A stretch of 64,000 nucleotides of DNA, from NCBI RefSeq assembly GCF_015354735.1, contig NZ_JACEFJ010000019.1:17093-81092 (forward strand), in the 5' to 3' direction. Of this stretch, positions 2,792-63,266 are shown piece after piece. The position numbers and the translations under genes were made by a program. Origin of the DNA: Pararhodonellum marinum (GTDB lineage Bacteria > Bacteroidota > Bacteroidia > Cytophagales > Cyclobacteriaceae). Within the stretch, counting starts at the first letter, position 1. Each line of letters starts with the position of its first letter. A model generated the notes under the pieces. That model did no database searches, was not told the DNA's origin, and saw nothing but the letters and a program-made list of their open reading frames with translations.

Positions 2792-3532
2792 ATGACAGTA
2801 ACCACCATTAAAATTGAGCAGATAATCAATCATACAAGAATAATCTTATTCCCTTCTTTGCTCCGGAAAAAGGATAAGGTTTATTTAATAGACTGTGGGT
2901 ATGAGGAAACTTTCGGAAATTTGGTAGGCGAGTTGTCAAAAATAGGCATTCAGGTAAATCAAATCCACGGAATCATCATTTCCCATGATGATATCGATCA
3001 TTTAGGGGCACTCAAAAAGTTTAAAGAGCAAAATGAATCCATAGAAATTTATTGTGGATCATTTGAAAAGGATTCCGTAAGCGGAAAAATTAAATCTGAG
3101 AGATTGGTTCAGGCGGAAAGCTCTTTGGGTGATCTCACAGGTGATTACAGGAATTGGGCACTCGGTTTTATTCATGCCTTGACCAAGATAAAAAGGCTTG
3201 AGGTGGATAAAACTTTTCATGATGGGGAAATTTTTGAAGATGAAATTCAGATTCTCCATACGCCGGGACATACCAAAGGGCATATTTCACTTTTCATTCC
3301 AAATCAAAGAATCCTCATCGCCAATGATGCCTTGGTGGCAGAAAATGGTTCTTTCGAAATCGCTAATCCCACTTTCACATTAGACCTTAAAAATGCGATT
3401 AAATCGGTAGAAAAAATTAAAGCACTCAAGCCCCAAAAGGTAATTTGCTATCATGGGGGAATTGTAGAAGAGGATGTGGAAGCAAAATTGGAAGATCTGA
3501 TTTGTAGATACAAGCCTATTTTAGACCATTGA
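2792..3532 (+). CDS. MBL-fold metallo-hydrolase
   Basis: HxHxDH-type motif IISHDDIDHLGAL. A downstream His in HTPGHTKGH and the D/H pattern are typical of the metallo-beta-lactamase fold. Confidence 0.75.
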   Translation: MTVTTIKIEQIINHTRIILFPSLLRKKDKVYLIDCGYEETFGNLVGELSKIGIQVNQIHGIIISHDDIDHLGALKKFKEQNESIEIYCGSFEKDSVSGKIKSERLVQAESSLGDLTGDYRNWALGFIHALTKIKRLEVDKTFHDGEIFEDEIQILHTPGHTKGHISLFIPNQRILIANDALVAENGSFEIANPTFTLDLKNAIKSVEKIKALKPQKVICYHGGIVEEDVEAKLEDLICRYKPILDH

Positions 3533-5991: not shown

Positions 5992-6573
5992 TTACTTTTC
6001 TAAAGCATGATGATTCTGGTATGCTTTCACTTGTTTCTTGGCTTGGATAAGGTGTCTCTCGTTGTGTACCAAAAGAAACTCAATGGTATCACAGGGTCTA
6101 AGCCTCAGCAAATGGGAAATGGAACTGCCTATCCTACCACGGTTTAGATTACTAAATCTAGCCCGAGATAGCATCACCAATATTTCCTCCAGGTATTGGA
6201 TAAAATCAGCCACGATTTTATGGGGATTGTTTGTTATGGCATTGGGATAATGCTTTTTCATCGCTTTGAATTTTTTCCCGTTTTCAACAGGCTTCATCAT
6301 AGTGATGAAATAAGTCCCTAGCCAACTTAACTTAATTGGGGTTGAATCTTTAGTTTGTCTTTGGGTTGCCAGAACCTTTTTGACCCTGGGTAAATAAAAG
6401 GCTGCATAGCTGTTGAGATGGTCAATGCAGGCTGCAGCGGACCAAGCTTCAGCAACGGAAAACAACAAGGCTTCCTCCGGGAGGTTTTGGAAAATTTTGG
6501 TGGAAGCTGCTATCTGTTCTTCCACCATTTTTTCCATTTTTTCTATCCAGGTTTCTTTATTCTGCAATTTCAT
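5992..6573 (-). CDS. DinB/DinB_2 superfamily protein (metal-dependent hydrolase-like four-helix bundle)
   Basis: The size and the H-containing helices (IDHLNSYAAFYLPRV ... LLVHNERHLIQ) suggest a DinB-family fold. The start may be an internal Met because the 5' end overlaps the upstream gene by 17 nt. Confidence 0.5.
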   Translation of the reverse strand: MKLQNKETWIEKMEKMVEEQIAASTKIFQNLPEEALLFSVAEAWSAAACIDHLNSYAAFYLPRVKKVLATQRQTKDSTPIKLSWLGTYFITMMKPVENGKKFKAMKKHYPNAITNNPHKIVADFIQYLEEILVMLSRARFSNLNRGRIGSSISHLLRLRPCDTIEFLLVHNERHLIQAKKQVKAYQNHHALEK

Positions 6574-16729: not shown

Positions 16730-17446
16730 GGTTGGTCTCTAGTTAGTTGTAGTTGGTTATGGTTATTTACTTTTACAAATTTGCAAATTATATGCCCAAG
16801 CATCATTACATCATCTCCAGAATTGCTTATAAAATTTACAGGTTAAATAACCATCTCGTTTAATTATTTCGAGATAAAATTTGGATTATCATTGATTTTG
16901 ATATTACTAAAAGAAGAAATGCAAAGTTTTTATTTTTGAGAATTTTGGTGAAAATCCAGAGTGGATACCCAATACCGCAAAGAAAATAAAATTGGGCTGG
17001 ATGGGGATTGAGTGGTTTGGTCGGTGAATTTTTGGGAAAAACAGTAATACGGAGTTGTATTTTTTTTGGTAAAACACCCCTTGAATTTCAACTTACTTAT
17101 AGTATTCAGCGGCTCGAAAATTATTAAGATTAGGATTTAAAACTGATATGCCAATTAGTTCATTAAAATGATCATTTCGTCATGGTTTTAGCCATGTTTT
17201 ATGGGTCAAATTTTTTCTTTTAGTCCTGGATTTCAGTTATGAATCAAATTCATATTGGGTATTTTTTACAACATTTTGTAGATTTCTACCAATAGGACAA
17301 GACTGGAAATTTGGATTGGTCTTTTAGCAATTGGTTAAGCATTTGCATCAAACAAACCTGAAGGTGAACTTGGTTAAATTCCGATTTCCAAGAATGAGAT
17401 CCGATGAATAATTTTTATGTCGTAAGAAAAATCCGCTCACTAATTT

Positions 17447-22172: not shown

Positions 22173-22515
22173 AAGAATGGCATTTTTAACCTTGGTTCTT
22201 CTAAATTTACCAATAGGGACAGTGAGATGCAAATGAGGTTATTTGAATCATGGTCTTTCCTTGCTGGAGATCCATATTCCAAAAGGATTGTTACCCCACA
22301 TCATTACTTATTAAGTTCAAATTAATTAGCTCCCTCTGCTGTAATTTTGGAAAGCCGCTTGTTTTTTTTACATAAATTGCAGGCAGTTTTCAAAGGAATC
22401 CCTTTGGCATCAGAATGCCATGCTAAAAAAGCTCCTGTTGAAATATGCTGTACCCATACGCTCATACACCTTTGATTTGATGATTGGATTTCGAATGCAT
22501 ACTATTATGCGTCTT

Positions 22516-24645
22516 GGCATAATGACGCTGCTTGCCCTTCTTTCTGCGAAACAGCTATCGGCACAAAACAATCCCGATACCTTAACTACCAGGCAGCTTG
22601 AACAAGTCACCGTAACCGCACAAAAGCAAACTGAAAACCTACAGGATGTACCTGTCAGCGTGACTTCATTTGGTGCTATGGAAATCCAAAATTTACGTTT
22701 ATGGAACAATGAAGGGCTTTCCGGTTTTGCGCCGAATCTATATGCGGCACATTCCGGTGATGGCCGAACCGTGATGGGCATTCGGGGAATTGCGACCACT
22801 TCCTATGATCCGGCTGTAGTCACTTACATTGACGGTGTGTTGCAGTTTGGTCTGGACACCTATTTCAATACTTTGCTGGATGTGGAGCGGATCGAGGTAT
22901 TAAGAGGTCCTCAAGGCACACTATATGGCCGCAATGCCATGGGAGGGGTGATCAACATCATCACCCAGCAGCCTACCAATACCACCAAAGGTTTTGTTGG
23001 CGTGGATATTGGAAATTATGGACTGCAGCGGTACAGCGCCGGCATCAAAACCCCATTGGTCAAAGACAAGTTGTTTTTGGGCGTTTCGGGACTATGGGAA
23101 AACCATGACGGTTTTTTTACCAATGATTTTGATGGTTCAAAATTTGATCGACGAAGGGCCTTGATGGGCAATTATTACCTCCGCTATTTGGCCACAAACC
23201 GACTTGCTTTTACCCTTAACCTCAAACACAACAACAACCGGAATTTCGGTGCTTTTCCCCTCGCTGGCAGCATCGAACAGGCACTTGAAAATCCTTTTAG
23301 GGTGAATCAGAATGCAGTTACCCGAATGGTGGATGATGTATTCAATGTTTCTTTGAGTGCAGAGTATACTGCAGAAAACTACACCCTCACTTCCCAGACT
23401 GCCTTCCAATCCAATTACCGCATTTATGAAGAGCCTATAGATGGGGATTTTTCCCCACTTGACATCGTGTCCATTGTTAATAATTTTGGAAGGGAGTGGA
23501 ATAGAGTAAAGGTTTGGACCCAGGAAATCAGGCTGGCCTCTGTCAGAAAACCTGAAACCAAAATTTCATGGCATACCGGTGTATTTGGATTTTTGCAGGA
23601 TGATCCTGTAAGACAGGGAATTTATTTTGGCGAAAATGCTGACCTTTTTGGATCTCCGTTTACTGATTTTACCCAGATCACTACCAATGTGGGGAATAAT
23701 TATGGTATGGCTTGGTTCGGTCAGGGGACCTATCACCTTGATCCCAAATGGGATGTCACTTTTGGTCTACGTTTTGATTATGAAAGCAGGGAATTGACCG
23801 CAAATCAGGAGGTTATTTTTGGAAGCAACCCACCTATCCTGACTCAGGGAGATACCACGGGAAAAGCCAGTTTCAATGCGTTTTCTCCTAAAGTCATCTT
23901 AAGCCGTAATTTGGCTGAAAACCGCCTGCTTTTCTTATCATACAGTAGAGGTTTTAGGGCAGGTGGTATTACCCAGCTTTCCTCAGATCCCGGCGAAATT
24001 CCGCTTCTAGGTTTTGACCCGGAATTCAGTGACAATTTTGAGTTGGGGTTCAAAAGTGACTGGATGGATAATAGGCTGCGTTGGAATGCAAGTCTCTTCT
24101 ATACCTTGGTCAGTGATGTTCAGGTGCCTATCCTGATTCTGCCAGATGCCATCGTGGTCACCACCAATGAGGGCAGTCTCATAAGCAAGGGAGTAGAATC
24201 TGAGTTGACTGGATTGATCGGTAAAAAAACAATGCTTTCCTGGAATGTAGGCTTTACAGATGCCCGGTTTACGAATCTGAATTTAGGTGGGGAAGGGAAC
24301 GGTGAAGATTTAAGTGGTAACAGACAGCTGTTCACTCCTGATTTTACCTCTTCACTAATCGCTCAATATCAGACTGATATCAGCAGTGAGAAAAATTTGA
24401 GTTTAATTGCCAGAGCGGAATGGATATGGATAGGAAACACCTACTATGATTTGGCCAATACCCTGAAACAAGATCCCTACCACTTGGTCAATTCCCGCAT
24501 TGCTTTGAGAAAAGACAAGTTGGAATTGGCGCTGTGGGCGAGAAATATGCTGGATACCAAGTATGTGAATTTTGCTTATAACTTCGGAGCTGCCCACCTT
24601 GGCAACCCGGCCACCTTCGGGCTTTCTGCGAGGTTTGACTTTTGA
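22516..24645 (+). CDS. TonB-dependent receptor
   Basis: Signal peptide (MRLGIMTLLALLSAKQLSAQ), a plug-domain motif region, a long beta-barrel and a C-terminal ...GLSARFDF ending in Phe. The track ORF starts earlier, at 22420. Confidence 0.8.
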   Translation, partial: GIMTLLALLSAKQLSAQNNPDTLTTRQLEQVTVTAQKQTENLQDVPVSVTSFGAMEIQNLRLWNNEGLSGFAPNLYAAHSGDGRTVMGIRGIATTSYDPAVVTYIDGVLQFGLDTYFNTLLDVERIEVLRGPQGTLYGRNAMGGVINIITQQPTNTTKGFVGVDIGNYGLQRYSAGIKTPLVKDKLFLGVSGLWENHDGFFTNDFDGSKFDRRRALMGNYYLRYLATNRLAFTLNLKHNNNRNFGAFPLAGSIEQALENPFRVNQNAVTRMVDDVFNVSLSAEYTAENYTLTSQTAFQSNYRIYEEPIDGDFSPLDIVSIVNNFGREWNRVKVWTQEIRLASVRKPETKISWHTGVFGFLQDDPVRQGIYFGENADLFGSPFTDFTQITTNVGNNYGMAWFGQGTYHLDPKWDVTFGLRFDYESRELTANQEVIFGSNPPILTQGDTTGKASFNAFSPKVILSRNLAENRLLFLSYSRGFRAGGITQLSSDPGEIPLLGFDPEFSDNFELGFKSDWMDNRLRWNASLFYTLVSDVQVPILILPDAIVVTTNEGSLISKGVESELTGLIGKKTMLSWNVGFTDARFTNLNLGGEGNGEDLSGNRQLFTPDFTSSLIAQYQTDISSEKNLSLIARAEWIWIGNTYYDLANTLKQDPYHLVNSRIALRKDKLELALWARNMLDTKYVNFAYNFGAAHLGNPATFGLSARFDF

Positions 24646-24667
24646 GCAGGATTGGTCTGAAAAATTA

Positions 24668-24990
24668 TTGCACGCAAAGGTGCAAAGGCGCTAAGAAAAA
24701 AAGGGAGGTAAAGGTTTTTTTGGATAGCTGAAACTTTTTGTTTTGAGTTAGGGGCTTTTTAATTGCACGCAAAGGCGCAAAGACGCTAAGAAAAAAGGGG
24801 AGGTAATGGTTTTTGGTTAGCTGAATCTTTTGTTTTGTTAGAGGCTTTTTAATTGCACGCAAAGGCGCAGAGACGCTAAGAAAAAAGGGAGGTAAAGGCT
24901 TCTTGGCCCAGCGGAATCTTTTATTTGAGATAGGGACTCTTTAATTGCATGCAAATACGCAAAGGCGCTAAGAAAAAAAGGAGCTTATAA
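24668..24990. repeat. Tandem array A: ~3.5 copies of a ~93-bp unit (TTGCACGCAAAGGCGCAAAGACGCTAAGAAAAAAGGGGAGGTAATGGTTTTTTGGTTAGCTGAATCTTTTTGTTTTGAGTTAGGGGCTTTTTAA)
   Basis: Directly visible head-to-tail copies with point substitutions. Confidence 0.85.
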
Positions 24991-25300
24991 TTAATTAACA
25001 CAGTGCTTTCTTTTTTTTTGAAAAATATTGACTTTTAATGAATTACAAAAAATGGTTATCTGCTTCTTTGCCAGTAACACAATATTCTTCTTCAAACGGG
25101 ACGGAAGTCGGCCTTTAGTCGGGCAGGCCCGCCTTTAGTCGGGCAGGGGATGTGCCGGGATTTCAGTTCGCTGGTGATAATTATATTGAATTACCATTTT
25201 ACTGGCATCATTGCGTACCTACATATTACAAAAAAAACTTTGCGTCTTTGCGCCTTTGCGAGAAACCAGTTTCTTTACTCCTCTGCGAGAGAAACAATGG
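24991..25300. repeat. Repeat tail B (~310 bp), duplicated at 26733-27055
   Basis: It contains a GC-rich hairpin microsatellite (GCCCGCCTTTAGTCGGGCAG x2) and the inverted complement of the array core (CTTTGCGTCTTTGCGCCTTTGCG). Confidence 0.8.
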
Positions 25301-25448
25301 ATTTTGATTATTTTATCTGGATTATTTATATTTAGAATTATTTAGGTATTTAATCGTTGACAAAATTGCCTTCATAGTCTTTCGCTTTTGCGAAAATAAA
25401 TTTTTGTTTTTTTAAGAAGTTTTTAGTGCTACACTCACTTTTATATTT

Positions 25449-25826
25449 ATGACAGAAAATGAGCTTTCAAAAACCATTGTAGACACCTGTTACCGAATTC
25501 ATGTGGAATTAGGTCCGGGTTTGTTTGAGTCAGTTTATGAAGAGATTTTAACTTACGAATTGATTCACAAAGGATTGTTTGTTTCGCGGCAGCAGGCCAT
25601 ACCTGTCTATTGGCATGATGTTAAAATGGATCAGGGATTTCGTGCTGACTTGATAGTGGAAAATAAAGTGCTGATAGAGGTAAAATCTGTTGAGTCCATT
25701 GCACCCGTCCATCAAAAACAAGTATTGACTTATTTAAAGCTTTCTGGCTTAAAGCTTGGGTTGTTGATTAATTTTAATGAGGTATTGTTAAAAAATGGAG
25801 TTAGCCGGATAGTAAATAATCTTTAG
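25449..25826 (+). CDS. GxxExxY protein (PD-(D/E)XK nuclease-fold family)
   Basis: The N-terminal TCYRIHVELGPGLFESVYEEIL contains the G-x-x-E-x-x-Y motif. Downstream D...E.K residues fit the PD-(D/E)XK pattern (ADLIVENKVLIEVKS). Confidence 0.75.
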   Translation: MTENELSKTIVDTCYRIHVELGPGLFESVYEEILTYELIHKGLFVSRQQAIPVYWHDVKMDQGFRADLIVENKVLIEVKSVESIAPVHQKQVLTYLKLSGLKLGLLINFNEVLLKNGVSRIVNNL

Positions 25827-25833
25827 TTGACAA

Positions 25834-26732
25834 TTGCACGCAAAGGCGCAGAGACGCTAAGAAAAAAAGGGAGCTAAAGGGCTCCTTGGGCTAGCTGAAT
25901 CTTTTTGTTTTGAGTTAGGGGCTTTTTTAATTGCACGCAAAGGCGCAAAGACGCTAAGAAAAAAGGGGAGGTAATGGTTTTTTGGTTAGCTGAATCTTTT
26001 TGTTTTGAGTTAGGGGCTTTTTAATTGCACGCAAAGGCGCAGAGACGCTAAGAAAAAAGGGGAGGTAATGGTTTTTTGGTTAGCTGAATCTTTTTGTTTT
26101 GAGTTAGGGGCTTTTTAATTGCACGCAAAGGCGCAAAGGCGCTAAGAAAAAAAGGGAGGTAAAGGTTTTTTTGGATAGCTGAAACTTTTTGTTTTGAGTT
26201 AGGGGCTTTTTAATTGCACGCAAAGGCGCAAAGACGCTAAGAAAAAAGGGGAGGTAAAGGTTTTTTTGGATAGCTGAAACTTTTTGTTTTGAGTTAGGGG
26301 CTTTTTAATTGCACGCAAAGGCGCAGAGACGCTAAGAAAAAAGGGGAGGTAATGGTTTTTTGGTTAGATGAATCTTTTGTTTTGAGTTAGAGGCTCTTTA
26401 ATTGTACGCAAAGGCGCAAAGGCGCTAAGAAAAAAAGGGAGTTAATGGTTTTTTGGTTAGCTGAATCTTTTGTTTTGAGTTAGAGGCTTTTTAATTGCAC
26501 GCAAAGGCGCAAAGACGCTAAGAAAAAAGGGGAGGTAATGGTTTTTTGGTTAGCTGAATCTTTTGTTTGAGATAGGGGCTTTTTAATTGCACGCAAAGAC
26601 GCAAAGGAGCTAAGAAAAAAAGGGAGGTAATGGTTTTTTTGGATAACTGAAACTTTTTGTTTTGAGATAGGGGCTTTTTAATTGCACGCAAAGGCACAAA
26701 GGCGCAAAGAAAAAAAGGACTTATAATTGATT
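25834..26732. repeat. Tandem array A': ~9.5 copies of the same ~93-bp unit, starting 8 nt after the GxxExxY stop
   Basis: Copies are directly visible. Two sub-variants alternate (GGTAATGG / GGTAAAGG). Confidence 0.85.
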
Positions 26733-27055
26733 TACACAGTGCTTTCTTTTTTTTGAAAAATATTGACTTTTAATGAATTACAAAAAATGGTTATCTGCTT
26801 CTTTGCCAGTAACTCAATATTCTTCTTCAAACGGGACGGAAGTCGGCCTGTAGTCGGGCAGGCCCGCCTGTAATCGGCCAGGTCCGTCTTTTGTCGTGCG
26901 GGCCCGCCTTTAGTCGGGCTGGGATGTGCCGGGATTTCAGTTCGCTGGTGATAATTATATTGAATTACCATTTTACTGGCATTTTTGCGTACATACATAT
27001 TACAAAAAAACTTTGCGTCTTTGCGCCTTTGCGAGACACTAGTTTCTTTACGCCG
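26733..27055. repeat. Repeat tail B' (second copy of tail B)
   Basis: It is >90% identical to 24991-25300, except that the GC hairpin microsatellite has 4 units instead of 2. Confidence 0.8.
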
Positions 27056-27196
27056 CTGCTAGAAGGCAATTTCTTTAGGTAGAAACATTTAGAAAAAGCT
27101 GCAAAGAAAAAGGTATATTTTTATTTATTTTACCCTAGATCTATTTCCAAAAACAATTTGTTTAATCCAACAAAAAAATCAGCTAAAGGGTAAGAG

Positions 27197-28033
27197 ATGA
27201 GCATCCAACCACCAATAGTAGTAAAACCGCTTTTTGGTCCTTTAGACGACCTGCTGCTTGACCTTTTAAAAGGACTTTCGGACCAGGATTGGGAAAAGCA
27301 AACCATAGCCAAAGCATGGAAAGTAAAGGATGTAGCAGCCCATTTGTTGGATGGAAACCTAAAGACCCTGAGTATACAGAGGGATGGCTATTTTGGAGAG
27401 ATTGCCCCGGAAAAGCCAACATATGGAACTTTGGTTGAGTGGCTGAATGAGCTAAACGCAAGCTGGGTAAAGGCAGCCAAAAGAATCAGTCCAAAAGTAC
27501 TGATTCATCTTCTTGAAATCACCGGGAAAGAGGTTACCGCCTACTATGAAACTCTACCGGATTATGAAAAGGCGGTTTTCCCAGTCAACTGGGCAGGGGA
27601 GACCCAAAGCCAAAACTGGATGCACCTGGCCAGAGAGTACACCGAGAAATGGCATCACCAACAACAAATAAGAGACGCAGTAGAGGTACCCGGGATTATG
27701 AACAAAGAATTTTATTTGCCGGTGTTGGATACCTTTATGAAAGCCCTGCCTTTTACTTTTTCCCAAATGAAAGCAGGCAAGAATGATATGGTGAAAATAA
27801 GTGTAACCGGAACGGTAGAATCTACTTGGTACTTATCAAAAATCACTTCCGGTTGGCATGTAGGAAAAACAGAGATGCAACAACCTACCGCGACTGTTGA
27901 GATTGATGCTGATTGGGCTTGGAAACTGTTTTCAAAAAGCCTCAGGTCCCATGATATTATGGACAGGGTAAAAATTTCAGGTGAGGAACGGTTGGCCTTA
28001 AGGGTATTGGAAATGGTGTCCGTTATGGCCTGA
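27197..28033 (+). CDS. DinB_2 / maleylpyruvate-isomerase N-terminal-domain (TIGR03083-like) protein
   Basis: The N-terminal W..K..TIAKAWKVKDVAAHLLDGN resembles the MDMPI_N/DinB_2 His-containing helix. Confidence 0.5.
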   Translation: MSIQPPIVVKPLFGPLDDLLLDLLKGLSDQDWEKQTIAKAWKVKDVAAHLLDGNLKTLSIQRDGYFGEIAPEKPTYGTLVEWLNELNASWVKAAKRISPKVLIHLLEITGKEVTAYYETLPDYEKAVFPVNWAGETQSQNWMHLAREYTEKWHHQQQIRDAVEVPGIMNKEFYLPVLDTFMKALPFTFSQMKAGKNDMVKISVTGTVESTWYLSKITSGWHVGKTEMQQPTATVEIDADWAWKLFSKSLRSHDIMDRVKISGEERLALRVLEMVSVMA

Positions 28034-60606: not shown

Positions 60607-61569
60607 TCAGGAGGGAATGGGATTTTTTATTTTTTCCAACATGATCTCCAACAGCTCCTGCAATCTTTCTCTGAGACTTACTGGTTCCAACACCTCCCAT
60701 TGATCCCCCATCATCAAAAGCCAACGGGCAAATCCTTCCAAATGGCTGCTCATAAAAGTCATGTGATAGTATTCCTCATACTTTTCCTGCAAGACGAAAC
60801 CTTGGTTGTACCGCTGGTTTTTGATGTATTTGTAGGAGGATTTTGGTACCTTGATCACCACTTTCTCCAGATTCTCCTCCTGTTTCACTTGATCCAAATA
60901 AGCCTGCAGGGAGGGGTGCCGGTCTGAATAGGTTTCTTCCAAAGTGTGGATATCAGAGATTCTGTCCACCCTGAAGTTCCGATAGGCTTTCCTGAGTTTG
61001 CACCAGGCGATCAGGTACCATTGTTCAAAAGCGAAATAGACCCCGATAGGCTCAATTTTCCTTTCGGTCAACTCTTCTTTATCAAAAGAAATGTAGGTCA
61101 TGTTCAAGATTTTCTTTTCCGAAAGGGCATTTAGGATGGTCTGAATACGGTTTTTCTTTCCCCAATCTTTTTCGGAATTATGCGGTCGGAAGGCAGCTAT
61201 CTGATCATTGAGGTTTTCGATCAGGTTTTTCTCGTCCAACCGCAACACAGACTTGATTTTGATCATGGCAGATTGCAGGTGTGCAGCACCTTCTTTGTCC
61301 ATGATTTTTTCCAGGATCTTCTCCGCCATCAGGAAGGCCATGGCTTCCTCTTTGGTAAACATCACAGGAGGCAATCGATAACCTTCCACCAACGAATAAC
61401 CAAAACCCGCCTCTCCGATAATGGGAATGCCAGCCTCTCCCAAGGCCCTCATGTCCCGATACACCGTTCTCAGACTGATATCAAAGCGATCTGCAATTTC
61501 CTGCGCCTTAAGCAATCTTTTGCTCTGCAACTGCGTCAAAATGGCGGTCAGCCGGTCAATTCTATTCAT
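60607..61569 (-). CDS. WYL domain-containing transcriptional regulator (YafY family: HTH + WYL + WCX)
   Basis: The N-terminal MNRIDRLTAILTQLQSKRLLKAQEIADRFDISLRTVYRDMRAL is an HTH_11-type motif. The central YISFDKEELTERKIEPIGVYFAFEQWYLIAWC is the WYL motif region. Confidence 0.75.
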   Translation of the reverse strand: MNRIDRLTAILTQLQSKRLLKAQEIADRFDISLRTVYRDMRALGEAGIPIIGEAGFGYSLVEGYRLPPVMFTKEEAMAFLMAEKILEKIMDKEGAAHLQSAMIKIKSVLRLDEKNLIENLNDQIAAFRPHNSEKDWGKKNRIQTILNALSEKKILNMTYISFDKEELTERKIEPIGVYFAFEQWYLIAWCKLRKAYRNFRVDRISDIHTLEETYSDRHPSLQAYLDQVKQEENLEKVVIKVPKSSYKYIKNQRYNQGFVLQEKYEEYYHMTFMSSHLEGFARWLLMMGDQWEVLEPVSLRERLQELLEIMLEKIKNPIPS

Positions 61570-61739
61570 GGGACTGCTGGATAGTGGACAAGTATATAAA
61601 ATTGTAAAACTTATGGGTAAGGTCAAAATATTATGCTGTCAACCCACCTGTATATTTTGTAAAGAATGCTTGTTGTCGGGGTTGTCCAGTTGTCAGGTTA
61701 CCGTAAAACAGCATAACAGAAAACTGGATATCAGAGGAA

Positions 61740-62500
61740 AAGCTTGAGGTAGGATAATTAGAATAACGGAAAAACAGGAAACGGAATATCAGAAGGACAG
61801 TGAAGGGGTTGAAGCTGAAAGCTCAAAGGTGAAAGCTGAAAGCAGAGAAACAGGCTATCGGAAAAACAGAAAAAAAGAGGTTCAGAGGAAAGCTCGAAGT
61901 AGATAATCAGAATAACAGAAAACTGAATAACAGAAAACAGGATATCAGAGGAGAAGCTCAAACCAGGGAAAACAAATCAGTAGGAAGAAGGAAGTGCTGT
62001 AGGCACGAACGATGTAATAGCCCGGTAATTTATTGCCGGGATTTGGAAGCAAATAGTAAAGAAAAGTGCCGTAGGTACGACAGATTTTCTACGAACAAGA
62101 GGATGGAAAGAGAGGAAAAGCTTGAAGTAGGATAATTAGAATAACGGAAAAACAGGAAACGGATCATCAGAAGAACAGTGAAGGGGTTGAAGCTGAAAGC
62201 TCAAAGCAGAGAAACAGGCTATCGGAAAAACAGAAAAAAAGAGGTTCAGAGGAAAAGCTTAAACTAGGGAAAACAAATCAGTAGGAAGAAGGAAGTGCTG
62301 TAGGCACGAACGATGTAATAGCCCGGTAATTTATTGCCGGGATTTGGAAGCAAATTAGTAAAGAAAAGTGCCGTAGGTACGACAGATTTTCTACGAACAA
62401 GAAGATGGAAAGAGAGGAAAAGCTTGAAGTAGGATAATTAGGATAACGGAAAAACAGGATAACAGAGGATAAGCTCAAAGGTGAAAGCTGAAAGTAGTTT
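61740..62500. repeat. Purine-rich complex tandem repeat, ~310-bp unit x ~2.4, with internal AACAGAAAACAGGA-type sub-repeats
   Basis: The unit from ~61744 recurs at ~62112 and partially at ~62412 with >90% identity. It includes a hairpin-containing module GCCCGGTAATTTATTGCCGGG. Confidence 0.8.
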
Positions 62501-62774
62501 ATCAATTAGACCAAAAAACAGGGCAACAGAAAAAGCGCGAAGCTGAAGGACTTAAGCGGAGGTCCGAGGCAAAAAGCCAAGATACTCCGTAAATCGCAAC
62601 TCACAATTCATACCTCGTAAATCGTAAATCGTACCTCTCAAATCCCTTTTCTTTTTGGATGACAGGACGCAAAAGGCCATAGTTCGCTCTATCAAAAAAA
62701 ATCCCCCCTCCTGACATAGGGCTGTCACTGAGTAGTAGTTTCTTTGAGATATGTTACATCCAAAACCAGAAATC

Positions 62775-63266
62775 ATGAAAACAACAACCGAAATCAGCAC
62801 ATCCCCATTGATGACCTCCGACCAACTGTTGGCCCACTGGCAAGGGCATAGGCAATTGACCAGAAGGGTCATCGATGCTTTTCCGGAGAAAGATCTTTTT
62901 CATTACAGCATAGGCGGAATGCGGCCATTTGGTGCAATGGTCAATGAATTGTTGGCCATTGCCGTGCCTGGATTAAAAGGAATCGCCAATGGGCAATGGG
63001 AATCCTTGAATGAGGACATTGAGGTGGATGAAAACAAACCCAAATTACTTGGACTTTGGGATCAAACAACCTTAGACATCGATCATTGGTGGGCAAAACT
63101 TGATCCCAATGGCTGGCAGAATACAGTTTTGACCTTTGGTCAATACGAGGGAACAGTGCTGAACAGCATCCTTTATTTTATCGACAATGAAATCCACCAC
63201 CGGGGACAGGGATATGTTTATCTCAGAAGTCTGGGCATAGAACCACCTTATTTCTGGGAGCATTGA
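62775..63266 (+). CDS. DinB family protein (DinB_2 superfamily)
   Basis: W..H...T.R.I..FPE... at the N-terminus and a C-terminal HHRGQ region, as in DinB-family proteins. Start taken at MKTTTEI. Confidence 0.6.
   Translation: MKTTTEISTSPLMTSDQLLAHWQGHRQLTRRVIDAFPEKDLFHYSIGGMRPFGAMVNELLAIAVPGLKGIANGQWESLNEDIEVDENKPKLLGLWDQTTLDIDHWWAKLDPNGWQNTVLTFGQYEGTVLNSILYFIDNEIHHRGQGYVYLRSLGIEPPYFWEH

Follow-up and report, generated by a model that had tools for sequence, protein, structure and literature searches.

A gene for a small protein of the GxxExxY family, found in a contig of Pararhodonellum marinum (Bacteroidota; NZ_JACEFJ010000019.1), lies between two non-coding modules that are direct copies of each other and are bounded by short, inversely complementary sequences, here called the left and right arms. 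The stretch analysed, hereafter the window, comprises 64,000 nucleotides (nt) of that contig, from position 17,093 to position 81,092, and the coordinates below are counted from its first letter. We consider it likely that this locus is an over-grown, lineage-specific expansion of a family-wide and apparently undescribed GxxExxY cassette architecture, with one gene between two direct arm-bounded modules. The arms are a cross-phylum, family-wide hallmark of GxxExxY cassettes and are not peculiar to the window locus: they go with the gene, the cassette behaves as a discrete presence/absence unit, and its duplication and amplification into arrays recur in independent lineages. It is this family-wide association that makes the locus interesting, the 93-nt arrays of the window being probably functionless by-products.

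Architecture of the Locus

A module of this kind can be read as a left arm (TTGCA followed by three CGCAAAG-type octamers) at one end and a right arm (the inverted complement of the left, extended by AGAAA) at the other. Within each of the two modules, the left arm together with about 65 nt of local sequence appears to have been amplified, to 3.4 copies in one and 9.4 in the other. The parts of the locus and its neighbours are as follows.

22420-24645, plus strand: TonB-dependent receptor gene, with Plug and beta-barrel domains (Pfam), upstream of the repeat locus
24667-24983, plus strand: array A, 3.4 tandem units of about 92 nt, each with a left arm and some 65 nt of lineage-specific sequence
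24667-24761 (A1), 24762-24851 (A2), 24852-24943 (A3) and from 24944 (partial A4): the units of array A
24984-25290, plus strand: tail B, non-coding, with a two-copy 20-nt sub-repeat at 25107-25148; closes with a right arm
25238-25265, plus strand: right arm of module 1, CTTTGCG-T-CTTTGCG-C-CTTTGCG-AGAAA, 184 nt upstream of the GxxExxY start codon
25291-25448, plus strand: AT-rich leader from module 1 to the gene, 158 nt, unique and unduplicated
25449-25826, plus strand: GxxExxY gene, 125 aa, a minimal PD-(D/E)XK nuclease by family match
25833-26722, plus strand: array A', 9.4 tandem units (P1-P10) of about 94 nt, with the same left arm and 65-nt unit
25834-25861, plus strand: first left arm of array A', its outer end toward the GxxExxY gene
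26716-27063, plus strand: tail B', a direct copy of tail B with four copies of the 20-nt sub-repeat (26842-26923); closes with a right arm
27011-27038, plus strand: right arm of module 2, CTTTGCG-T-CTTTGCG-C-CTTTGCG-AGACA
27197-28033, plus strand: DinB/MDMPI-like gene, downstream of the repeat locus

The succession of array, tail, gene, array and tail had been proposed in an earlier note made from the letters of this DNA, and every part of it was recovered where it had been placed. The receptor, GxxExxY and DinB/MDMPI-like genes all lie on the plus strand, and the further neighbours include a SnoaL-like protein and a PCMT methyltransferase (Pfam). Tandem Repeats Finder delimits array A at 24667-24983 (period 90, 3.4 copies, 84% matches) and array A' at 25832-26715 (period 95, 9.4 copies, 92% matches), and the second array begins only 6 nt past the GxxExxY stop codon. 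The units are 90-97 nt long and lack unique spacers; they had been said to differ only by point substitutions, and substitutions there are, together with insertions and deletions (indels) of 1-3 nt.

The left arm of the unit is ATTGCA-CGCAAAG-G-CGCAAAG-A-CGCTAAG, a triple octamer with a core of 23-28 nt. With up to three mismatches allowed, the window has 15 occurrences of the core CGCAAAGGCGCAAAGACGC, where shuffled sequence predicts 0, and all 15 are inside the locus: 13 on the plus strand, in the units, and two on the minus strand, in the tails (25242-25260 and 27015-27033, both with 0 mismatches). The tails do then carry the inverted complement of the unit core, as had been claimed, and because they do, the GxxExxY gene is bracketed by a 23-28-nt inverted repeat (25238-25265 / 25834-25861). 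A scan of the whole 64-kb window found the triple-octamer motif and GxxExxY genes nowhere else. When the RNA of 25225-25875 is folded in silico, the minimum free energy is -168.7 kcal/mol (z = -3.9), and in the outermost predicted stem the tail-B right arm is paired with 25836-25861, in the first left arm of A'. Long-range pairing between tail and array, an idea already present in the earlier note, is therefore borne out at the level of prediction, and an arm-arm stem enclosing the gene may be envisaged in the transcript.

The two modules have a shared history. Unit A1 differs from P4 of array A' at 1 of 95 positions, the closest counterparts of A2 and the partial A4 are P2 and P10, and A3 has diverged most; arrays A and A' are thus related copies that have exchanged sequence recently at least once. 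Tails B and B' are 92-97% identical in blocks, with about 5% of positions different plus a 40-nt indel; B' has two extra copies of the 20-nt sub-repeat. Their ends have in common the right arm and about 25 nt beyond it. The sub-repeat itself reads GCCTTTAGTCGGGCAGGCCC, every copy forming a small GC-rich hairpin, and motifs that look alike by eye (cctgcc...ggcagg) stand near the arms of two homologous loci, L030 and L089 (L numbers denote the loci fetched for comparison).

The GxxExxY Protein and Its Family

The product of the gene passes both curated family cut-offs over its full length, with E 2e-39 for PF13366 (135 bits against a cut-off of 22) and E 1.4e-41 for TIGR04256 (141.5 bits against 35), the family models covering residues 5-122. 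The PD-(D/E)XK fold, the GxxExxY motif and the D...ExK catalytic residues are all recognised, and E27, D67, E77 and K79 are invariant among 68 homologues. The family is a large one: at least 8000 candidate homologues of PF13366/TIGR04256 were scored, every one of them passing E 1e-3. In a 2012 survey of the PD-(D/E)XK superfamily, PDDEXK_3 is listed with the function "Unknown", and multiple transfers between bacterial divisions are described for it (PMC3424549).

Other comparisons yielded little. No solved structure is detectable for the protein by sequence; as to a phage origin, there is no match in GenBank phages or in PHROG, and one homologue occurs in IMG/VR; as to known defence systems, PADLOC gives weak similarity to Cas4-like proteins (E 3e-3) and to a nuclease of defence-associated reverse transcriptases (DRT). 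In those portions of the searched literature that were accessible, GxxExxY proteins are met in passing and the arm sequences were not found. The earlier note had it that GxxExxY genes are known from intervening sequences (IVSs) of rRNA. This could not be substantiated, the protein matching PF13366 only and the window being free of rRNA, and the claim presumably confuses GxxExxY with the four-helix-bundle family of IVS proteins.

Arms Beside Homologous Genes

Two samples show how the arms are distributed. The exact 26-nt core GCACGCAAAGGCGCARAGRCGCTAAG, scanned in a collection of species-representative genomes, was found at 22 loci in Bacteroidota, Acidobacteriota, Chloroflexota and Leptospira. 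It usually precedes its own inverted complement there, and a GxxExxY gene directly adjoins it in 6 of the 22. The second sample starts from the protein and comprises 80 metagenome loci and three contigs, with proteins 61-88% identical and 90 genes in all. Arms lie at most 300 nt away from 85 of these 90 genes, against a density of 0.16 arms per kb farther off. The usual layout, found as the nearest-arm pattern in 36 loci, is left arm, open reading frame (ORF), right arm, and in this layout the arms abut the start and stop codons at a distance of a few nt. The order right arm, ORF, left arm occurs in 15 loci, the window included, because complete left-to-right modules there flank the gene on both sides. 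On the whole, 51 of 75 homologous loci have opposite types of arm nearest to the gene on its two sides.

From 183 distinct arms comes the consensus TTTCW-CGCAAAG-r-CGCAAAG-r-CGCAAAG-a. Its outer TTTCW lay outside the search pattern and yet is strongly conserved, 96% of the arms having a C at position -2. In the CGCAAAG subfamily, arms from the same locus complement each other at 21.2 of 26 positions and arms of other loci at 20.9 (p = 0.2). Covariation within loci is not significant, and the conservation of the arms looks like a constraint on sequence, as for a recognised site, and not on pairing alone. The cassettes also have a preferred setting: by a long-ORF heuristic, 66 of 73 loci have an upstream neighbour pointing the same way as the gene, and the gene is wedged between co-directional genes in all seven plasmid loci that were annotated or inspected. 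With neighbours so oriented, expression by read-through from the upstream gene fits.

The arm motif is also met in viral contigs. In IMG/VR, 81 stretches of predicted viral contigs (L106-L185) carry the exact triple octamer CGCAAAGnCGCAAAGnCGCAAAG; among the roughly 40 of these that were listed, CGCAAAGnCGCAAAGnCGCAAAG mostly stands right after ORFs, with tctCA before it. No gene family recurs beside the motif in 80 viral-contig loci, and none of them has a GxxExxY gene. At two places in IMG/VR (L124, about 6000-6160, and L131, about 3080-3230), the arm word is found as an octamer microsatellite, (CACAAAGG)3(CGCAAAGR)6(TACAAAGG)n, grading between variants.

Presence, Absence and Amplification of the Cassette

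The cassette can be seen as a unit in L007, which encodes a 68%-identical homologue. Here the arrangement TTGCACGCAAAGACGCTAAGGCGTAAAG-aaaggc-ORF-t-CTTAGCGTCTTTGCGCCTTTGCGTGCAA sits between a CN_hydrolase gene and purH, the ends of the cassette reading TTGCACGCAAAG...ORF...CTTTGCGTGCAA. In three relatives (L191, L192 and L193; purH 85-88% identical), the CN_hydrolase and purH genes are 80-169 nt apart, with neither ORF nor arms between them. Because the sites of the relatives lack both, the arms of L007 came along with the gene and did not exist beforehand as a hairpin. Arms and gene together make a unit of about 440 bp, and L007 is a case of its discrete presence or absence at a conserved site, bounded by inverted ends. 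The spacers of the empty sites do not align to the filled site, so that a target-site duplication is unreadable. The same neighbourhood shows a further difference, in that L192 (4556-5078) has a 58-aa ORF and a PIN-domain gene between purH and mreB which L193, otherwise identical in this region, does not have; this looks like another insertion or deletion of small genes nearby.

Duplication around the gene is frequent. Direct repeats of at least 40 nt flank it in 27 of 83 loci, often from 10 nt or less past the stop codon, with lengths such as 177 nt (L077), 93 nt (L044), 91 nt (L094), 343 nt (L081) and 217 nt (L033). Of 90 loci, 17 have tandem arrays (period 30 nt or longer) no farther than 1 kb from the gene, and 2 have them solely at greater distances. 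In L081 both flanking arrays have a period of 91 nt, with 7.8 and 3.8 copies, L033 has one array on each side of the gene (periods 101 and 96 nt), and the array periods of L092, L002 and L066 are 97-104 nt. The units of these homologue arrays contain both arms, and their spacers are unrelated to that of the window. The tie between repeats and GxxExxY gene that the earlier note had suspected from a single locus is accordingly a recurrent one.

How modules without a gene may arise is illustrated by L064 (1948-2519, metagenome contig Ga0316209_1000350), where 172-nt tandem units stand upstream of an intact GxxExxY gene. Each unit is the whole cassette minus the ORF, of which the first 19 nt are kept along with the 3' flank. 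Since these units are ORF-deleted cassettes, ORF-less arm-bounded modules can be said to derive from cassettes. The unit of the window was itself considered as a remnant of the gene in the manner of L064, and the candidate was rejected, the similarity being not significant. A decayed right arm within the unit was also sought; the signal is weak (p 0.02-0.07, using hand-picked consensus sequences), and no claim is made for it.

Distant Homologues Use Other Words

In distant homologues (33-51% identity), the layout is kept with different words of 7-9 nt. The arms of Bernardetia are CACAGAG / CTCTGTG, and those of Bacteroides finegoldii, of the same type, are CACAGAGG / CCTCTGTG. Treponema has CACGGATTCG / CGAATCCGTG, and the viral-contig locus L194 has the word CGCAGATAA. 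In Sphingomonas, the arrangement TTTTCACGCGAAGGCGCGAGGACGCGAAG-ORF-...CTTCGCGGCTTCGCGTGAA, built on the word CGCGAAG, is inserted between fabD and fabG, and in Gemmatirosa a CGCAGAGG hairpin module is duplicated, with one copy on each side of the gene. Direct repeats of about 40-60 nt, as read by eye, stand on both sides of the gene in Fusobacteria and Prevotella. From one subfamily to another both arms change together, and the arm words differ with the protein subfamily.

The arms also leave traces in annotation. The annotated GxxExxY coding sequence of L197 (771-1199, Sphingomonas plasmid NZ_CP155749.1) runs through the right arm and ends in a C-terminal "...SSRLRVNQRIGG". In the window, the arrays yield spurious ORFs with "...APLRAIKKPL..." repeats at 24665-24862 and 26518-26697 on the minus strand.

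A Model for the Cassette

These observations suggest that the general unit would be a compact cassette of left arm, ORF and right arm, usually placed downstream of a host gene and in the same direction. The ORF-less arm-bounded modules would be derivatives of such cassettes, much as miniature inverted-repeat transposable elements (MITEs), REPINs (hairpin pairs of repetitive extragenic palindromes, REPs) and BOX elements stem from larger elements. Once present, repeated arms could serve as substrates for slippage, unequal crossing-over or gene conversion, which would give rise to arrays and to the module-gene-module state seen in the window. That state might be reached by duplication across the gene, or else by single-crossover integration of a circle of gene plus module into a solitary module. 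The arms would be recognised sequence-specifically, most economically by the cassette's own PD-(D/E)XK nuclease, and in the transcript they may pair into a stem of 23-28 bp by which the ORF, expressed by read-through, is insulated, processed or repressed.

A bolder version of this model can be put forward only tentatively. GxxExxY proteins could be the nucleases of an unrecognised cross-phylum class of cassettes, each a minimal PD-(D/E)XK enzyme able to recognise its own triple-repeat arms in the form of a duplex, hairpin, cruciform or RNA stem; such recognition would promote or control the insertion, excision, copying or transcript excision of the 440-bp unit in host operons, the ORF-less arm pairs and arrays being non-autonomous by-products and the whole a PD-(D/E)XK counterpart of REPs and their associated tyrosine transposases (RAYTs). 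We regard this as possible, though clearly less probable than the cassette architecture itself.

Several points weigh against these interpretations. Nuclease activity, arm recognition and mobility are all things that we infer. The metagenome loci behind counts such as 85 of 90 were picked by similarity to one protein and include several near-duplicates, so that the counts are non-independent. No GxxExxY gene accompanies the arms in 16 of the 22 genome loci or in any of the 80 viral-contig loci, and the arms may be a generic element with which GxxExxY genes merely associate. The near-equal complementarity within and between loci gives no compensatory evidence for a stem inside the CGCAAAG subfamily. 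As for movement, the ffh-folD insertion site is common to diverged genomes (L036, L084 and L086), and such shared sites speak for long persistence by vertical descent and not for frequent movement. For the window locus no empty site was obtained, the nearest TonB-receptor homologues being 63% identical and non-syntenic. Lastly, the window has its arms in the "wrong" order and its units have no clear right arm; since the arms run right, gene, left, the gene lies outside the modules. On the other side, the empty sites of L007 and the co-variation of words with subfamilies argue against a purely incidental association, short of proving that the nuclease acts on the arms.

If the cassette architecture holds, its conserved context (arms, presence or absence, sense insertion in operons and module amplification) offers the first testable functional hypothesis for PF13366/TIGR04256, and with it concrete substrates for biochemistry. 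In practical terms, the arms account for spurious ORFs and for N- and C-terminal extensions of annotated proteins ("...RKGAKTLR...", "...LRLCAFA..."), and they mark a source of assembly breaks and copy-number polymorphism. Should the arms prove to be the sites of a compact, 125-aa nuclease specific for sequence or structure, they would also be of interest for tool development.

Alternative Explanations

The main rival is a generic one: the arms would be an extragenic palindrome, either REP-like or a hairpin that stabilises or processes the 3' ends of mRNAs, with no specific tie to a nuclease; the GxxExxY genes would be small promoterless hitchhikers, and the arrays the result of minisatellite drift. 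Such a hairpin would be at home just past stop codons, where the arms are usually located, and it could stand alone in many phyla and in all of the viral-contig loci without a recurrent neighbour family, as the arms do. It would also sit well with the absence of covariation within loci and with a motif able to drift as an octamer microsatellite (L124, L131). The earlier note had reasoned that a unit scattered through genomes with no link to GxxExxY would be a REP-like element; this applies in part to the core, which is found free of the gene at the 16 genome loci and the 80 viral-contig loci, and not to the unit. Yet at L007 the arms come with the gene, and the empty sites have none. Nor does a generic hairpin explain why 85 of 90 genes have arms beside them when the background is so low, why these arms keep within a few nt of start and stop codons, or why their words shift with the protein subfamily while the architecture is retained. 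We therefore judge this explanation rather unlikely, and prefer the reading of the arms as part of a GxxExxY cassette.

One may also suppose that the 93-nt units matter in themselves, as a functional RNA or DNA array pairing with the tail: as repeated small RNAs, as decoys or sponges that capture the right arm, or as an array of protein-binding sites by which a factor is titrated or the nuclease gene regulated. The imbalance of 13 left against two right arms, all of a kind on one strand, is what such an array would look like; pairing between right and left arms is predicted over long range, arrays with a period of 91-104 nt recur beside homologues, and the near-identity of A1 and P4 suggests homogenisation. 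The sequence of the units is less accommodating. When two consecutive units are folded, neither strand is more stable than shuffled sequence (z +0.87 and -1.18), and there is no Rfam match in the locus (at E up to 1), in the whole window or in 20 related loci. Promoter- and terminator-like matches per unit do not exceed those of shuffled sequence, the leader (25291-25448) has weak sigma-70-like matches that are likewise not above shuffles, and the coding potential of arrays and tails is limited to short ORFs, none conserved between the copies. Neither the rest of the window nor 200 other fetched loci contain anything similar to the non-core sequence of the unit, to the tail or to the leader, so that, beyond this genome, only the 23-28-nt arms are common to other loci. 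In other lineages the array spacers are unrelated and every unit contains both arms, and 73 of 90 homologues have no array. The notion of unit and tail as a functional entity thus finds no footing in their non-core parts; the 93-nt unit by itself is most likely a functionless by-product, and a functional array seems improbable.

A third explanation is technical: the duplication or the arrays might have been made or distorted when short reads of a simpler locus were assembled. The source was probably assembled from short reads, its contig is just 81 kb long, and the longest exact repeat in the locus measures 125 nt, just below the usual maximum assembly k of 127 and about what a de Bruijn assembler would leave. 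Copy number within the arrays is not verifiable, and because identical adjacent units would collapse in assembly, the copy numbers given here are minimum values. For the same reason, the recent expansion or contraction of the arrays that had been proposed stands in part: the near-identity of A1 and P4 makes expansion plausible, while the number of copies is made uncertain by the assembly. The path through the locus is nevertheless unique at k = 127, being set by the distinct substitution patterns of the units. Neither the divergence of about 5% between the tails nor their 40-nt indel is expected from an assembly duplication, and modules and arrays on both sides of the gene recur in many independent assemblies. 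An artefact of this kind is thus very unlikely, and the two modules flanking the gene are best taken as real.

Hardly any credence can be given to an integron-like cassette with attC-type sites or to a guide array like those of clustered regularly interspaced short palindromic repeats (CRISPR) or tandem interspersed guide RNAs (TIGR): small promoterless ORFs with direct-orientation imperfect palindromes of variable length do resemble ORF-attC arrays, and a tandem array does adjoin a nuclease gene, but unique spacers are absent, the cassette ends TTGCACG...CGTGCAA lack the attC core GTTRRRY, the cassettes are single and sit in ordinary operons instead of being arrayed by an integrase, the Cas4-like similarity in PADLOC is weak, and no cas-like gene or integrase is found in five of the ORFs within about 4 kb (Pfam) or in the two other large ORFs there, which were read, the window as a whole not having been scanned for integrases. 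A CRISPR array in particular was rejected, as it had been in the earlier note, the units of A and A' being 90-97 nt long, head to tail and free of unique spacers, whereas CRISPR repeats measure about 23-55 nt; no cas genes were seen among the scanned neighbours.

A Second Repeat Region

The window has another non-coding repeat region, at 61690-62520, with a period of about 302 nt and about 2.7 copies. It contains purine-rich sub-repeats, AAGCTGA (4.6 copies at 61812) and CAGAATAACAGAAAA (2.8 copies at 61908), and is flanked by a regulator-like ORF (60607-61626, minus strand) and a DinB-like ORF (62751-63266). Its sequence is unrelated to the arms of GxxExxY genes.

Comparison With Known Systems

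Free-standing homing endonuclease genes include PD-(D/E)XK types such as I-Ssp6803I, and the GxxExxY cassette resembles them as a small nuclease gene that forms a presence/absence unit at conserved sites; it differs in having no intron or intein, and inverted arms are not known as a feature of homing genes. With integron cassettes it has in common promoterless small ORFs, served by read-through, and palindromic modules in direct orientation on both sides. Unlike them, it has no GTTRRRY core and no cassette array, no integrase was recognised nearby, and it occurs as single insertions between housekeeping genes. An IVS of 23S rRNA with an ORF would offer a further parallel, with a small ORF inside inverted repeats, a long stem that these could form in the transcript and that might be a substrate of RNase III, and presence or absence among relatives. 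In contrast to such an IVS, the window has no match to rRNA or to any other Rfam family, and the protein belongs to PF13366, not to the four-helix-bundle IVS family.

The resemblance to REP/RAYT systems goes further. In both, one small gene of nuclease or transposase type stands amid short, inverted, palindrome-forming repeats; here the gene is bracketed by its cognate inverted repeats at 25238-25265 and 25834-25861. In both, intergenic regions without the gene also contain the repeats, frequently in hairpin pairs, the sequence of the repeat co-varies with the protein subfamily, and vertical persistence is apparently long. The differences are nonetheless clear. The protein is a 125-aa PD-(D/E)XK nuclease by family (PF13366) and not an HUH/Y1 transposase of the IS200 type; the arms are triple words of 8-9 nt, with one word family across phyla, whereas REPs are species-specific; and GxxExxY genes are often multi-copy and wedged in operons. 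Where REPs would be scattered between genes, tens to hundreds to a genome, the other 61 kb of the window hold 0 further copies of the arm, although solitary arms do occur in other genomes.

The BOX element of Streptococcus pneumoniae is built as boxA-(boxB)n-boxC, with complementary ends and an internal sub-module that is tandemly amplified. The module of the window, which can be written as (left arm + 65 nt)n-tail-right arm, is similarly modular and non-coding, and the likeness extends in general terms to Correia and enterobacterial repetitive intergenic consensus (ERIC) elements: all are intergenic, co-transcribed with their neighbours and capable of forming a stem. There is no sequence similarity to BOX-type elements, and the modules described here are tied to a protein-coding cassette. 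By analogy, then, the GxxExxY cassette may be placed closest to REP/REPIN-RAYT systems in its logic, and closest to the modular BOX element in its anatomy.

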